Positions 39,001 through 48,000 of a DNA stretch of 64,000 nucleotides are shown here, piece by piece (the first letter of the stretch is position 1; each line of letters opens with the position of its first letter). The DNA lies in NCBI RefSeq assembly GCF_001677475.2, contig NZ_CP015229.1. One strand, written 5' to 3'. Position numbers: made by a program. Source of the stretch: Escherichia coli (GTDB taxonomy: Bacteria > Pseudomonadota > Gammaproteobacteria > Enterobacterales > Enterobacteriaceae).

Positions 39001-42000
39001 AAAAGAGATCCGCACGCTTGAAGGTGAAGCGAAAGGCGGAAAACTTTCTCATGTTCAGCAGGCTTATGCGAAATCCGGCGCAGTGCAGTGCGGGTTTTGT
39101 ACGCCTGGCCTGATTATGGCTACCACGGCAATGCTGGCGAAACCACGCGAGAAGCCATTAACCATTACGGAAATTCGTCGCGGACTGGCGGGAAATCTTT
39201 GTCGCTGCACGGGGTATCAGATGATTGTAAATACAGTTCTGGATTGCGAGAAAACGAAGTAAAAGGATATCCGGCCTGAATTCAGGCCGGATTCACTGAG
39301 GTTATGTGTTTAACAACTCATATTTCTTAATCTTGCGATAGAGCGTAGCAATGCCGATGCCCAGTTCATCAGCAACTTGCTTCTTGCTGTTATGACGTGA
39401 AAGCGCCTCGCGGATCATTTGCTTTTCCATCTCCTCCAGCGCCGTGCCGCCCGCATCATCGAGTGACAGGTGTGCCTCAGTGACCTCTGTTACATCACTT
39501 TGCTCCGTTGTGCCATTATTCAGCAGATTTGGCGGCAATAGCGTGCTGTCGATAACTTCACCTGAAGGAACAACGTTAACCAGATATTCCATCAAATTGC
39601 TTAACTCGCGCAGGTTTCCGGGCCAACGATGCTTACGCAATATTTCGACGACATCGGGAGCAATGCCAGGATAAACCGATCCCAGACGACGGGTATGCAG
39701 ATGTAAAAAGTAATGCACCAGTAGTTCAATATCTTCCTGACGTTCACGCAGCGGTGGCAGAGTTATCGGGATAACATTAAGTCGGTAGAAGAGATCTTCG
39801 CGGAATTTACCTTCGGCAATGAACTGGGCCAAATTCTGGTTAGTTGCAGAAATGATGCGAATGTCGACTTGTATTGGGCTACTGGCACCAATCGGCAGAA
39901 TTTCACGTGCCTCAATAGCGCGCAGTAATTTAGCCTGCAACATTAATGGCATATCACCTATTTCATCGAGAAACAGCGTGCCCGTATTCGCCGCCTGAAT
40001 CAACCCTGTTTTACCGTTGGCAGAAGCGCCAGTAAATGCGCCTTTAACATAACCGAACAGTTCGCTCTCCAGAAGCTGCTCCGGAATCGCGGCACAGTTG
40101 ATAGCAATAAAGGGTTTATTCCGTCTTCCGCTCAACTTATGGATTGCACGGGCGACGACTTCTTTACCCGTGCCGCTTTCGCCAACCACCATAACGCTGG
40201 ATGGGCTGGGTGCAATACGGCTAATGAGTCGTTTTAATTGCCGCATAACACGGCACTCGCCAACCAATTGTTCAATATGCGGTTCATCAGGTGCATTTGC
40301 TACAGAAAAACTGGTATGCGATTGGTGAAACGCCATTAAAAATAATTGTCGGCCCTGAATGTTATGCAATTGACCAATGATTAATTCACTTTTATCGTCC
40401 CACGAAACAATATGCTGCATATGTCCATGGGTAAAATTACTCTCAAATGTTAATGGTCTGAAACGGATAGGTTTCCCAATAATATTATTTTGTACAACAC
40501 CAAGTGTTTTTAAGGCAGTCTGATTAACAAACTGAACCCGACTTTCATCATCAACAACTAATACGCCCTGATCCATATTATCGATCATGGTCGCGAATAT
40601 TTTACTGATGTTATCTCCTGGCCCCTGATCCTCCAGAAGTTTCGAAACAAAAATGGTGGATATATGGCGAACGTAATCAGAAAATTCGCGTAAATTATCA
40701 CTGATATGTTCTTGTTGCTCGTGGGTAACGGCAATCAAACTTATCACCCCAACACAACGATCCTGTAAAATGACAGGCGTACCCAGAAATGCTTTTTCAC
40801 GGCAATTTTCTTTACTATCGCAACCTTCGCAAAGGGGATCGAAGCGAGATTGTGTCACAACTTTTTCAGTTTTCGTTTCCAGGACGTGGCGGAGCAGGCG
40901 TGAGTTGCCGCTCAACTGGCGACCAAGAAACTTCCCATACGCGCCAGTTCCGGCGACGCGACACAAGTTTTCATCAACGATCTCAACCTCAAGCTGCAAA
41001 ACGCTGGCAAGCATTCTGGCAAAACGCTGAATTGTCGGTTGAATTTGCATCAATACTGACTGCGTAGTAGCAAGCTCCATAGCTTTACCTTCCAGACTTA
41101 CTTAAAAGTCGATCATTGAAGACGTTGATGGTTCACAGATCATGATGATATTAACTCAGGCGAAATTGGCTTTGATAAAAACATAAGATTTTTATCATTT
41201 TCTAATGAAATTATGGAAGAGATATCACATTTCTATATCAATATGAGAATTACGGCGGTGAGTTTATCAAACTGACGAGGGATAGCCTGCCCCTTTATCT
41301 TATTTCTGATACTTAGCAGCAAATAAATAACGCAATAAAAAAATGCCAAACGTTTTCGTATTTTACAAACAACCCGAAGCTGGCATCAATTTGTGATCAA
41401 CCCCACACATTATCCGTCAAATTAGTCTTTTGCAGCCGCTTGGATAATTCTGGCACAGTTATTGTTAGTCCCAGGTATAGCTGTGAAAACACCAATCACT
41501 TTGGCAAGTCACAGTGAAATAAACCTCTTTGCCTGTCATTCCACTACCGGGACTTTATGATGAAAACTGTTAATGAGCTGATTAAGGATATCAATTCGCT
41601 GACCTCTCACCTTCACGAGAAAGATTTTTTGTTAACGTGGGAACAGACGCCAGATGAACTGAAACAAGTACTGGACGTTGCCGCAGCATTAAAAGCACTG
41701 CGTGCTGAAAACATCTCAACCAAAGTCTTTAATAGTGGATTAGGTATTTCCGTATTCCGCGACAACTCCACCCGTACCCGCTTCTCTTATGCTTCCGCGC
41801 TTAACCTGCTCGGCCTTGCACAGCAAGATCTCGACGAAGGCAAATCACAAATCGCTCACGGCGAAACCGTGCGTGAAACCGCCAATATGATCTCCTTCTG
41901 CGCCGATGCCATCGGTATTCGTGACGATATGTATCTGGGCGCAGGCAACGCTTATATGCGTGAAGTTGGCGCTGCACTTGATGACGGCTACAAGCAGGGC

Positions 42001-45000: not shown

Positions 45001-48000
45001 ACCTGGAAAGTGGAAGAAGATCACTTCACCGTTAAAGCACTGGTGAATGCCTACGAAGGTCTGTTTGGCAAAGCGCCGGTTGTTGATAAGTGGACCTTCT
45101 CAACTAACGGCGTATCTATCATGGGCCGTCACGGCATTCCGGTGATCGGCTTTGGCCCAGGTAAAGAACCTGAAGCGCATGCACCTAACGAAAAAACCTG
45201 GAAATCTCACCTGGTGACCTGTGCCGCGATGTACGCGGCAATCCCGTTAAGCTGGCTGGCAACCGAATAATTACTCTTCACTTATTCCCCTCCGGTTCGC
45301 CGGAGGGTTTTTGGAGTTTGCTATGCGCGTATTGATCAAAAACGGCACTGTCGTTAACGCAGATGGACAAGCCAAACAGGATTTGCTGATTGAAAGCGGG
45401 ATTGTTCGCCAGTTGGGCAACAATATTTCGCCGCAGCTCCCGTATGAAGAAATTGATGCCACTGGCTGTTACGTTTTCCCTGGCGGCGTGGATGTCCATA
45501 CGCATTTCAATATTGATGTCGGCATCGCGCGCAGTTGTGATGATTTTTTTACCGGTACCCGCGCAGCTGCGTGTGGCGGTACAACAACCATTATTGACCA
45601 TATGGGATTTGGCCCAAACGGCTGTCGGTTACGCCATCAACTGGAGGTTTATCGTGGCTATGCCGCCCATAAGGCGGTCATCGACTACAGCTTTCATGGT
45701 GTGATCCAGCACATTAATCACGCCATCCTCGACGAAATCCCTATGATGGTCGAGGAAGGGCTGAGCAGTTTTAAACTCTATTTAACCTATCAATACAAAC
45801 TCAACGATGACGAGGTTTTGCAGGCATTACGCCGTCTGCATGAATCCGGCGCGCTGACCACCGTGCACCCGGAAAATGATGCAGCTATCGCCAGCAAGCG
45901 GGCGGAGTTTATCGCCGCAGGGTTAACCGCGCCGCGCTATCACGCCTTGAGTCGCCCTCTGGAATGCGAAGCGGAAGCCATCGCCCGCATGATTAACCTG
46001 GCACAAATTGCCGGTAACGCCCCGCTCTATATCGTGCACCTGTCTAACGGCTTAGGTCTGGATTATCTGCGTCTTGCCCGTGCGAATCACCAGCCAGTCT
46101 GGGTTGAAACCTGCCCACAATATCTCCTGTTGGACGAACGCAGTTACGATACAGAAGATGGCATGAAGTTCATTCTTAGCCCACCGCTGCGTAACGTACG
46201 CGAGCAGGACAAACTGTGGTGTGGCATCAGCGATGGTGCGATTGATGTGGTGGCGACCGATCACTGCACCTTCTCGATGGCGCAACGCCTGCAAATTTCT
46301 AAAGGCGATTTCAGTCGCTGCCCAAATGGCTTACCCGGTGTGGAAAACCGCATGCAGTTACTGTTTTCCAGTGGCGTGATGACGGGACGTATAACACCGG
46401 AACGTTTTGTTGAATTAACCAGCGCAATGCCCGCCAGGCTGTTTGGCCTGTGGCCGCAAAAAGGGATATTAGCGCCCGGTTCCGATGGTGACGTGGTGAT
46501 TATCGACCCACGTCAGAGCCAACAAATTCAGCATCGCCATCTCCACGACAACGCCGACTACTCGCCCTGGGAGGGGTTTACCTGTCAGGGCGCGATTGTC
46601 AGAACATTATCCCGTGGTGAAACGATTTTCTGTGACGGCAGCTTTACAGGCAAAGCCGGGCGAGGTCGTTTCCTGCGACGCAAACCGTTTGTCCCTCCCG
46701 TGCTCTAACCACTGCCAGGGATCTATACACAATCAAGAATGATGAGTGAGGAAAAATGAGTAAGAAAATTGTTCTCGCCCTGGGCGGGAATGCGCTGGGC
46801 GACGACCTGGCCGGACAAATGAAAGCGGTAAAAATTACTTCTCAGGCAATTGTTGATTTAATTGCCCAGGGACATGAGGTCATCGTCACTCACGGTAACG
46901 GGCCACAGGTGGGCATGATTAACCAGGCCTTTGAAGCTGCCGCAAAAACTGAAGCGCACTCGCCAATGCTGCCGATGTCTGTCTGTGTTGCCTTAAGCCA
47001 GGGCTATATTGGTTACGATCTACAAAACGCCTTAAGAGAAGAACTGCTTTCTCGTGGCATTAATAAACCTGTAGCAACGCTGGTTACCCAGGTCGAAGTC
47101 GATGCTAACGATCCGGCATTCCTCAACCCGACCAAGCCGATCGGTTCGTTCTTTACCGAGCAGGAAGCAGAGCAACTGACAAAACAGGGTTACACTCTGA
47201 AAGAAGATGCTGGTCGCGGCTATCGCCGTGTTGTTGCCTCGCCAAAACCGGTTGATATCATTGAAAAAGAAACGGTTAAAGCTCTGGTAGATGCAGGTCA
47301 GGTGGTGATCACCGTTGGCGGTGGTGGTATTCCTGTTATTCGTGAAGGTAACCATCTGCGTGGTGCCAGCGCGGTTATTGATAAAGACTGGGCCAGCGCC
47401 CGTTTAGCAGAAATGATTGATGCCGATATGCTGATCATTCTGACTGCGGTAGAAAAAGTGGCCATTAACTTCGGTAAAGAGAATGAACAGTGGCTCGATC
47501 GCCTGTCATTAAGTGATGCTGAACGCTTTATCGAAGAAGGTCATTTTGCGAAAGGTTCTATGCTGCCTAAAGTGGAAGCAGCCGCCTCGTTTGCTCGCTC
47601 TCGCGCAGGTCGTGAAGCACTGATTACCGTATTGAGCAAAGCGAAAGAAGGGATTGAAGGCAAAACCGGAACGGTGATTTGTCAGTAATTTAAAGGCCGG
47701 GTGGGTAATACCATCCGGCCATTTTCATTTAAGCCACTTCCAGCACTTCTTTTGTCGCTTTAACGCCCTGATGCATCAACATCATTAACGCCTCAAGTAC
47801 GCCGCCGCCAATTGCCCGGGCTTTATCAGAAACGCTGGTGAAATCAGCCGTTTCACCACGTGGATCGATATCACCAATTTTAAAACCACCGACCACCGCC
47901 AGTCCGTCGTTCAACAAGCCACGCACCATCCCCGTCAACGGTGCTTTAATTTCATGCTCACCAATCCAGGCAATCACATCGCCCTCTTTCACCAGATCGC

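Follow-up and report, generated by a model that had tools for sequence, protein, structure and literature searches.

A sigma-54 promoter and candidate YgeV boxes at the ygeW-ygeX-ygeY-hyuA-yqeA genes of the anaerobic urate-degradation cluster of Escherichia coli

How is the gene cluster with which gut bacteria remove urate, in a host without uricase, switched on in E. coli? The question is raised by a locus at positions 39302-47688 of the stretch analysed here (64,000 nt of contig NZ_CP015229.1, assembly GCF_001677475.2; hereafter the window), where an open reading frame (ORF) scan placed ygeV divergently from ygeW-ygeX-ygeY-hyuA-yqeA. The E. coli cluster for anaerobic degradation of uric acid has its regulatory and 'lower' half here. 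An initial annotation made from the sequence alone had listed these same genes, rightly so according to the ORFs and to the RefSeq annotation of the matching locus. The best explanation of the locus as a whole, which we consider probable, is that this part of the urate cluster is served by a sigma-54 promoter upstream of ygeW, by palindromic boxes for YgeV, by a CRP-like site and by a hairpin that tunes the expression of the distal genes. The features are located in Table 1.

The answer begins with the promoter. A TGGCAC-N5-TTGTT element with one mismatch at the -12 C had been placed by the initial annotation about 90 nt before ygeW, and it is confirmed at 41450-41466. Its core, TGGCACAGTTATTGTT (41451-41466, + strand), has a perfect TGGCAC and perfect spacing, the single mismatch being a T for the -12 C; the GG lies at 41452-41453 (-25/-24) and the G-T at 41464-41465 (-13/-12), with the -13 G present. 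The last base of the element is 90 nt from the first ygeW ATG and the transcription start (+1) is predicted at about 41477. Taken alone, the pattern is not above chance, TGGCAC-N5-TTGCW at up to one mismatch giving 1 match against 3.05 expected per 64-kb window; that single match is the ygeW element itself, placed and oriented correctly. The argument for the element is therefore one of position, of conservation and of binding that has been published. For conservation, 80 loci encoding YgeW relatives were taken from one-genome-per-species collections, and 18 proteobacterial loci were used for the promoter comparison. The element is kept upstream of ygeW in all 18, at 84-247 nt from the gene, in Enterobacterales, Aeromonas, Photobacterium, Endozoicomonas and a Rhodocyclaceae metagenome-assembled genome.

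As regards binding, chromatin immunoprecipitation sequencing (ChIP-seq) of sigma-54 in strain K-12 reported an in vivo site, OS30 (CTGGCACACTTATTGTT), assigned to ygeW at a distance of 80 and listed beside OS29 (xdhA), OS31 (ygfK) and OS32 (ygfT) (Bonocora et al. 2015, PMC4591121). OS30 lies at the same distance from ygeW as the element of the window (CTGGCACAGTTATTGTT) and differs from it by one spacer substitution, C to G at 41458 (ACTTA in K-12, AGTTA in the window). Moreover, genomic systematic evolution of ligands by exponential enrichment (gSELEX) with reconstituted sigma-54 holoenzyme gave a peak in the ygeV/ygeW spacer (PMC8743547), and sigma-54 promoters upstream of xdhABC and ygeWXY had already been identified by Reitzer & Schneider 2001, as cited in PMC10602906. 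Since the element coincides with OS30 and with the gSELEX peak and is conserved in 18 of 18 loci, we regard the ygeW promoter as real. All 19 sequences, the window included, have T, A or G at -12, and none has the consensus C, which the sister promoters of xdhA, ygfK and ygfT do carry. Judging from the sequence, the T in place of C should make the ygeW core promoter weak.

A riboswitch or structured leader in the 5' untranslated region (UTR) of ygeW was also considered, and was ruled out by Rfam, folding and covariation tests: the Rfam scan of 34000-52000 returned nothing except a tRNA, the minimum free energy (MFE) of the leader showed no unusual stability (z = -0.17), and no covariation was found in the leaders of seven genera. 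As a separate observation, the urate cluster of a Firmicute, Desulfosporosinus sp. OT, encodes a YgeV-like enhancer-binding protein (36% identical) and has consensus sigma-54 promoters, with the canonical -12 C, before ygeX (TTGGCATAATAATTGCAT) and before ygeY (TTGGCATTGTTCTTGCAT), at 1778-1795 and 5443-5460 of that locus. Sigma-54 control of the urate pathway is therefore not restricted to Proteobacteria.

Which protein would activate this promoter? The divergent gene ygeV encodes a product with a weak GAF match (residues 44-126), a PAS domain (162-206), an AAA+ sigma-54 interaction domain (272-439; PF00158, E = 2e-70) followed by its lid, and a C-terminal Fis-type helix-turn-helix (HTH_8, 548-587; E = 3e-13). 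The Walker A motif (GESGTGKE), the KGAFTGA loop and the Walker B motif (LFLDEIG) are intact. The domain scan gave no match to a receiver (REC, Response_reg), and the name 'orphan response regulator' under which YgeV/IsrR appears in PMC9426417 is not borne out by it. With GAF and PAS domains and without a receiver, YgeV would therefore be a one-component, ligand-sensing enhancer-binding protein. Direct control of ygeW by YgeV, with which the initial annotation had found the promoter consistent, is probable; it is supported by synteny (in 14 of the proteobacterial loci the two genes are divergent), by the YgeV iModulon (PMC10602906) and by the conserved palindromic boxes described below.

The initial annotation had also suggested that the interval from 41.1 to 41.4 kb be searched for inverted repeats, and this region yielded a conserved palindrome at 41236-41248. 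When ygeV-ygeW spacers of 11 genera were aligned, the mean column identity was 51% and a sharply conserved block stood out, with the consensus CATCACAnTTTnnTATCAATATGATAA ... TTATCAAtTTG (window positions 41224-41250 and 41264-41273). The core of this block is the palindrome TATCA-N3-TGATA, in its general form TMTCA-N3-TGAKA. A perfect inverted repeat nearby, TGATAAAAA-N7-TTTTTATCA, was rejected as the core site, only its left arm being conserved across genera. The 281 kb of proteobacterial loci contain 23 exact copies of TATCA-N3-TGATA, where shuffled sequence gives 0.23 (about 100-fold enrichment); in 689 kb from other phyla there are 4, with 1.07 expected. Of the 23 copies, 13 lie upstream of ygeW, 4 upstream of ygfK, 1 upstream of an xdh gene and 5 in coding DNA. 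At up to one mismatch the window holds 12 palindromes (3.2 expected), four of which fall in three sigma-54 upstream regions. An exact copy at position 268 of the Desulfosporosinus locus, 1.5 kb from the nearest sigma-54 promoter, was treated as a chance occurrence.

The position of the palindrome is also conserved: relative to the predicted ygeW start, the window and 11 of 13 other Enterobacterales loci have its centre between -234 and -248. Each of the cluster's four sigma-54 promoters (xdhA, ygeW, ygfK and ygfT) has a palindrome about 150-250 bp upstream. The ygfT promoter served as a test of this prediction: the K-12 ygfT-uacT spacer contains TCTCATATTGATA, centred at -199 from the sigma-54 promoter. 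In the copies before ygfK, five genera keep the arms and vary in the three central nucleotides. The regulator varies together with the box. Indeed, the segment ELGIGIATLYRKIKKY of the YgeV helix-turn-helix is invariant in all species with a TATCA box, and the variant TCTCA-N3-TGAGA is found only in Cedecea sulfonylureivorans and Erwinia mallotivora, which are also the sole species with a substitution in ELGIGIATLYRKIKKY. TMTCA-N3-TGAKA is thus likely, from these comparisons, to be the YgeV enhancer site. No publication reporting a YgeV binding site was found in the literature searched, and to our knowledge such a box has not been described before.

Between the palindrome and the promoter lies a further conserved element. 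Of the 18 other loci, 11 share with the window a CRP-like box (up to two mismatches) centred at -76.5 to -78.5, while three further loci have one at -67.5. Similar boxes accompany the sister promoters (Table 1); the core of the ygfK box at -97.5 is also perfect in Serratia silvae, and the ygfT box lies at -68.5 in the K-12 spacer. The background density is 32 such sites per 64 kb, and boxes in four of four promoters, at positions one helical turn apart, are therefore far beyond chance. The second CRP-like box of the spacer, which adjoins the palindrome, may serve the divergent ygeV promoter. Glucose represses urate degradation, and a 'native Crp-binding site' is mentioned in the ygeV-ygeW spacer (PMC12507026); ygeV is induced by carbon limitation and has a predicted Crp site (PMC6390033). 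A site for integration host factor (IHF) between enhancer and promoter was looked for by eye only, and no good match to WATCAA-N4-TTR was seen in the conserved blocks.

Classical sigma-54 enhancer systems include NtrC-glnAp2, PrpR-prpBCDE with IHF and CRP, and XylR-Pu with IHF. The ygeV-ygeW spacer resembles these: the regulator gene is divergent, palindromic sites lie upstream of a -24/-12 promoter, and between the two there is a site of architectural or co-regulatory type. It differs from them in that the enhancer is unusually distant (about -235), the intervening site is CRP-like and not IHF, and the -12 base is never C in the 19 sequences.

A regulatory model can be proposed from these elements. 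The five genes ygeW-ygeX-ygeY-hyuA-yqeA would be transcribed from the sigma-54 promoter, starting near 41477. YgeV would sense a ligand and bind the TMTCA-N3-TGAKA boxes about 235 bp upstream of ygeW, that is the core palindrome and its weaker neighbours, and the box shared with the xdhA, ygfK and ygfT promoters would make the entire purine cluster one YgeV regulon. The CRP-like site between enhancer and promoter, at -77.5 for ygeW and at -67.5 at sister promoters, probably bends the DNA for looping and probably explains the published glucose repression. More tentatively, as something that we hold to be possible without favouring it, the xdhA, ygeW, ygfK and ygfT promoters might share one three-part design, with YgeV boxes of the TTATCA-N3-TGATAA type, a phased CRP-like site with CRP and not IHF as the looping factor, and at ygeW a weak -12. 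If this were true, a sigma-54 enhancer would have catabolite repression built directly into it, and with its weak -12 the operon would stay silent except when YgeV with its ligand and cyclic AMP-CRP were both present.

Several observations weigh against this model. Of the ChIP-seq signals listed, that at ygeW is one of the weakest, with a value of 3 compared with 200 for glmY and 201 for hypA (PMC4591121). A massively parallel reporter study of 2026 found no consistent footprints at YgeV iModulon promoters under its conditions, and in the literature searched no experiment was found in which ygeW transcription needs YgeV or RpoN, or in which YgeV binds the palindrome. Several of the CRP-like boxes have two mismatches. 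At xdhA the two copies of the YgeV box carry one mismatch and sit closer to the promoter (-152 and -131). The palindrome is AT-rich, coding regions contain exact copies too (in ygeX, 43081, in yqeC, 49515, and in a uvrA-like gene of Edwardsiella), and within the ygeV-ygeW spacer it could equally serve as an operator of ygeV.

The last of these points belongs to an alternative in which the palindrome is the site of another protein, such as a nucleoid protein or a regulator of AT-rich boxes, Fur-like or other, or is the operator of the sigma-70 promoter of ygeV. Fur boxes contain GATAAT/ATTATC hexamers, which the arms of the palindrome resemble, and no more than about 156 bp separate the palindrome from the start codon of ygeV; its copies in coding DNA fit this alternative too. 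Nevertheless, the palindrome is also found upstream of ygfK, where no divergent regulator gene is present, and at 150-250 bp from the sigma-54 promoters it has the position of an enhancer, not of a repressor site. The enrichment is moreover confined to proteobacterial loci, most of which have a close YgeV orthologue, and the arm variant co-varies with a single helix-turn-helix substitution in YgeV. We therefore judge another protein improbable as the owner of the site and keep YgeV as the protein likely to bind it. On the intragenic copies themselves, both those in ygeX (43081-43093) and in yqeC (49515-49527) match TMTCA-N3-TGAKA exactly, and several genera have the ygeX copy, with 0-1 mismatches, at an identical codon position. 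This probably reflects coding constraint, and it may also be an intragenic YgeV site.

A second alternative concerns activation. The sigma-54 site might be bound without being activated by YgeV, either because another enhancer-binding protein acts there, NtrC for instance in view of the nitrogen-rich substrate, or because the site is poised and non-productive. Sigma-54 binding without known activators is widespread (Bonocora et al., PMC4591121), which suits the weak signal at ygeW; the gSELEX peak was obtained with holoenzyme alone (PMC8743547), and the YgeV iModulon was almost never active across 1,035 RNA-seq samples (PMC10602906). In contrast, the gSELEX intensity was hardly changed between RpoN holoenzyme alone (53%) and a second screen (55%) whose title indicates that NtrC had been added (PMC8743547), and no NtrC-type TGCACC-N5-GGTGCA site was evident by inspection in the conserved spacer blocks. 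Several orders have kept the promoter along with the divergent ygeV and the palindrome, and the box is common to the four sigma-54 promoters of the cluster. Genetic data point the same way, ygeV being one of the genes without which urate is not consumed (Iwadate & Kato 2019, in the account of Liu et al.) and ygfT expression being lower in a ygeV mutant according to PMC10602906. A site that escapes YgeV is in our opinion very unlikely, and activation by YgeV remains the reading that we prefer.

Does transcription from this promoter reach hyuA and yqeA? The spacer between ygeY and hyuA contains a hairpin that in the window has the form of an intrinsic terminator, a GC-rich stem-loop directly followed by five T: the stem has 8 bp (7 of them GC), the loop is TTCG, and the T5 is followed by a GGAG Shine-Dalgarno sequence (45313-45316) and by the hyuA ATG (45323). 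Spacer folding was assessed across genera with an alignment-free comparison of MFE with dinucleotide shuffles. In the window, the ygeY-hyuA spacer has an MFE of -18.4 kcal/mol (z = -2.95), and over the species compared its median z was -3.0, with z < -2 in 12 of 14 species. The corresponding values were -1.6 (6 of 14) for the ygeW-ygeX spacer, -1.3 (3 of 13) for ygeX-ygeY, and +0.5 (0 of 6) for hyuA-yqeA, which served as the control. GC-rich stem-loops also follow ygeW (Table 1) and ygeX. The stem sequences differ among genera, so that the structure is what is conserved. RNAalifold was not relied on, since the MAFFT alignments scramble the hairpins of divergent species; on these spacer alignments, five of six predicted pairs had compensatory changes in one run and no pairs were predicted in the other.

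With its canonical GC stem, tetraloop and T5, the hairpin might be an efficient terminator that divides ygeWXY and hyuA-yqeA into separate units, hyuA then having its own promoter, and the operon is indeed called 'ygeWXY' in PMC10602906. However, the spacer is just 52 nt long, all of it occupied by hairpin and Shine-Dalgarno sequence, with no sigma-70-like or sigma-54-like promoter match in it, and the T5 before GGAG is a short tract. A T-run of at least five after the stem is found only in Escherichia and Hafnia; elsewhere the stem abuts the Shine-Dalgarno sequence. That most orthologous hairpins keep the stem without a U-tract argues against termination as the conserved function, and since hyuA belongs to the same iModulon as ygeWXY, substantial read-through must occur. 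A complete separation of the two units is thus unlikely. The hairpin noticed in the initial annotation is real and structurally conserved, whereas the attenuation attributed to it stays inferential, the U-tract being mostly absent and read-through taking place. We infer that it is better called an intercistronic stem-loop, a partial terminator and/or a stabiliser of RNA ends, than an on/off attenuator. In the proposed model, it would cause partial termination and/or protect the 3' end of ygeWXY, tuning hyuA-yqeA relative to ygeWXY with no switch-off.

The function of the genes under this control is known from previous work. The pathway was solved in two papers of 2025, as the anaerobic 2,8-dioxopurine pathway or reductive urate pathway (bioRxiv 10.1101/2025.04.24.650524; PMC12507026). 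In both, HyuA acts on the ring-opened purine by opening its hydantoin ring, YgeW splits off a ureido group by phosphorolysis to give carbamoyl phosphate, and YgeY and YgeX complete the conversion of the C3 skeleton to pyruvate. Carbamoyl phosphate yields ATP through YqeA, and YgeW with YqeA gives ATP from 2,3-diureidopropanoate in vitro (bioRxiv 10.1101/2025.04.24.650524). The ureido group removed by YgeW is disputed, being the 3-ureido group in bioRxiv 10.1101/2025.04.24.650524 and the 2-ureido group in PMC12507026. The ATP-yielding chemistry that the initial annotation had proposed (ring opening, carbamoyl transfer to phosphate, carbamate kinase) agrees with this published biochemistry, and the role in anaerobic purine or urate catabolism that it had given to the cluster agrees with the two pathway papers. 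The window shares with the published pathway HyuA, YgeW, YgeY, YgeX and YqeA, with xdhD, ygfK and ssnA downstream. The authors of the pathway themselves draw an analogy with the arginine deiminase pathway (bioRxiv 10.1101/2025.04.24.650524), in which ornithine carbamoyltransferase together with carbamate kinase likewise combines phosphorolysis of a ureido group with substrate-level ATP formation; unlike there, the substrate here is 2,3-diureidopropanoate and the transferase is of the knotted YgeW type.

Earlier publications already describe the genes and their pathway, the YgeW/YqeA step that yields ATP, and the site bound by sigma-54. Our comparative work adds a probable YgeV box at four promoters, a phased CRP-like site, the non-consensus -12 at ygeW and the conserved stem-loop before hyuA, which are testable refinements of a known system and not a new kind of system. 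The YgeV box, the CRP-like site and the -12 base are cheap mutational targets for learning how the cluster is switched on. This is of relevance to the engineering of urate-degrading probiotics, the published CBT2.0 strain having had its ygeV-ygeW spacer swapped for other promoters.

Compared with K-12, the ygeV/ygeWXY-hyuA-yqeA locus of the window has identical genes, order and orientation, with no functional difference. A megablast search against 5,426 complete E. coli genomes matched the stretch 39302-47688 in 5,282 of them, the top identity being 98.7%, and none of the 5,426 reached 99% over the full stretch; the sequence thus probably belongs to an Escherichia or Shigella lineage that is somewhat divergent. 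The best matches, at 98.7%, were isolates from baboon, human, chicken and wastewater, and gene names were taken from the annotation of the best matching locus. The urate gene set is co-located in the window (ygeW, ygeX, ygeY, hyuA and the carbamate kinase gene with xdhD-ygfM, ygfK and ssnA), the neighbours being xdhABC upstream and yqeBC, mocA, ygfK, ssnA, ygfM and xdhD downstream. The possibility that hyuA is a xenologous replacement was ruled out, HyuA being 77% identical to a Pluralibacter protein and all orthologues tested matching TIGR02033. After yqeA, a hairpin lies between the convergent yqeA and yqeB and is likely a shared bidirectional terminator of the two genes.

Table 1. Position of genes, promoters, candidate binding sites and hairpins in the window. 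Distances of sites are from the predicted +1 of the promoter concerned.
Feature	Position	Strand	Remarks
Sigma-54 promoter of ygeW, CTGGCACAGTTATTGTT	41450-41466	+	motif, conservation, published ChIP-seq (OS30) and gSELEX
Predicted 5' UTR of ygeW	41477-41556	+	80-83 nt
Candidate YgeV enhancer cluster	41138-41277		conserved block in 11-genus alignment
Core palindrome, TATCAATATGAGA	41236-41248		centred -235 from predicted ygeW +1
Weaker flanking boxes	41138-41150, 41223-41235, 41265-41277		palindrome scan
Inverted repeat, TGATAAAAA-N7-TTTTTATCA	41173-41197		perfect; left arm conserved across genera, right arm Escherichia-specific
CRP-like box I, TGTGATCAACCCCACA	41392-41407		1 mismatch to TGTGA-N6-TCACA; centred -77.5
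CRP-like box II, TGGAAGAGATATCACA	41214-41229		2 mismatches; centred -255.5; adjoins palindrome; conserved CATCACA block
Sigma-54 promoter of xdhA, CTGGCGTAAATCTTGCC	35528-35544	+	ChIP-seq OS29 (PMC4591121)
Candidate YgeV box of xdhA, TATCACATTGATT	35397-35409		-152; second copy at -131
CRP-like box of xdhA	35480-35495		-67.5
Sigma-54 promoter of ygfK, GTGGTGCGATTGTTGCT	51086-51102	+	ChIP-seq OS31 (PMC4591121)
Palindrome of ygfK, TATCATAATGATA	50905-50917		exact; upstream of ygfK, centred -202
CRP-like box of ygfK, TGTGAGTTCATTCACA	51008-51023		perfect core; -97.5; second box at -67.5
Stem-loop before hyuA, CCCTCCGG-TTCG-CCGGAGGG and TTTTT	45288-45312	+	hairpin detection; stem-loop to 45307
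Hairpin after ygeW, GGGCCGATCAGCTGGTCGGCCC	42754-42775	+	GC-rich, intercistronic
Hairpin at operon end	47695-47720		10 pairs (8 GC), between convergent yqeA and yqeB
ygeV	39302-41080	-	ORF; sigma-54 interaction domain protein, 592 aa (RefSeq annotation of matching locus)
ygeW	41557-42747	+	ORF; knotted carbamoyltransferase; RefSeq start at second ATG, 41560
ygeX / dpaL	42805-44001	+	ORF; diaminopropionate ammonia-lyase
ygeY	44059-45270	+	ORF; M20-family hydrolase
hyuA	45323-46708	+	ORF from 45311; D-hydantoinase, annotated D-phenylhydantoinase; TIGR02033, 675 bits
yqeA / arcC	46756-47688	+	ORF; carbamate kinase

Further upstream in the window, an apparently intact gene set of ETT2-type type III secretion occupies 26194-31846 (- strand), just upstream of tRNA-Gly, actS and xdhA. 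Its members include an SctV/EscV-family protein (686 aa), an SctW gatekeeper, an SctC secretin and an InvF-like AraC regulator. Between these genes and the tRNA gene lies an ORF of 550 aa (32437-34089, - strand), for which no NCBIfam match was obtained at E <= 1e-10. The tRNA-Gly gene itself is at 34283-34353 (- strand), and the best-matching E. coli genome has a different island there, composed of an integrase and hypothetical genes.

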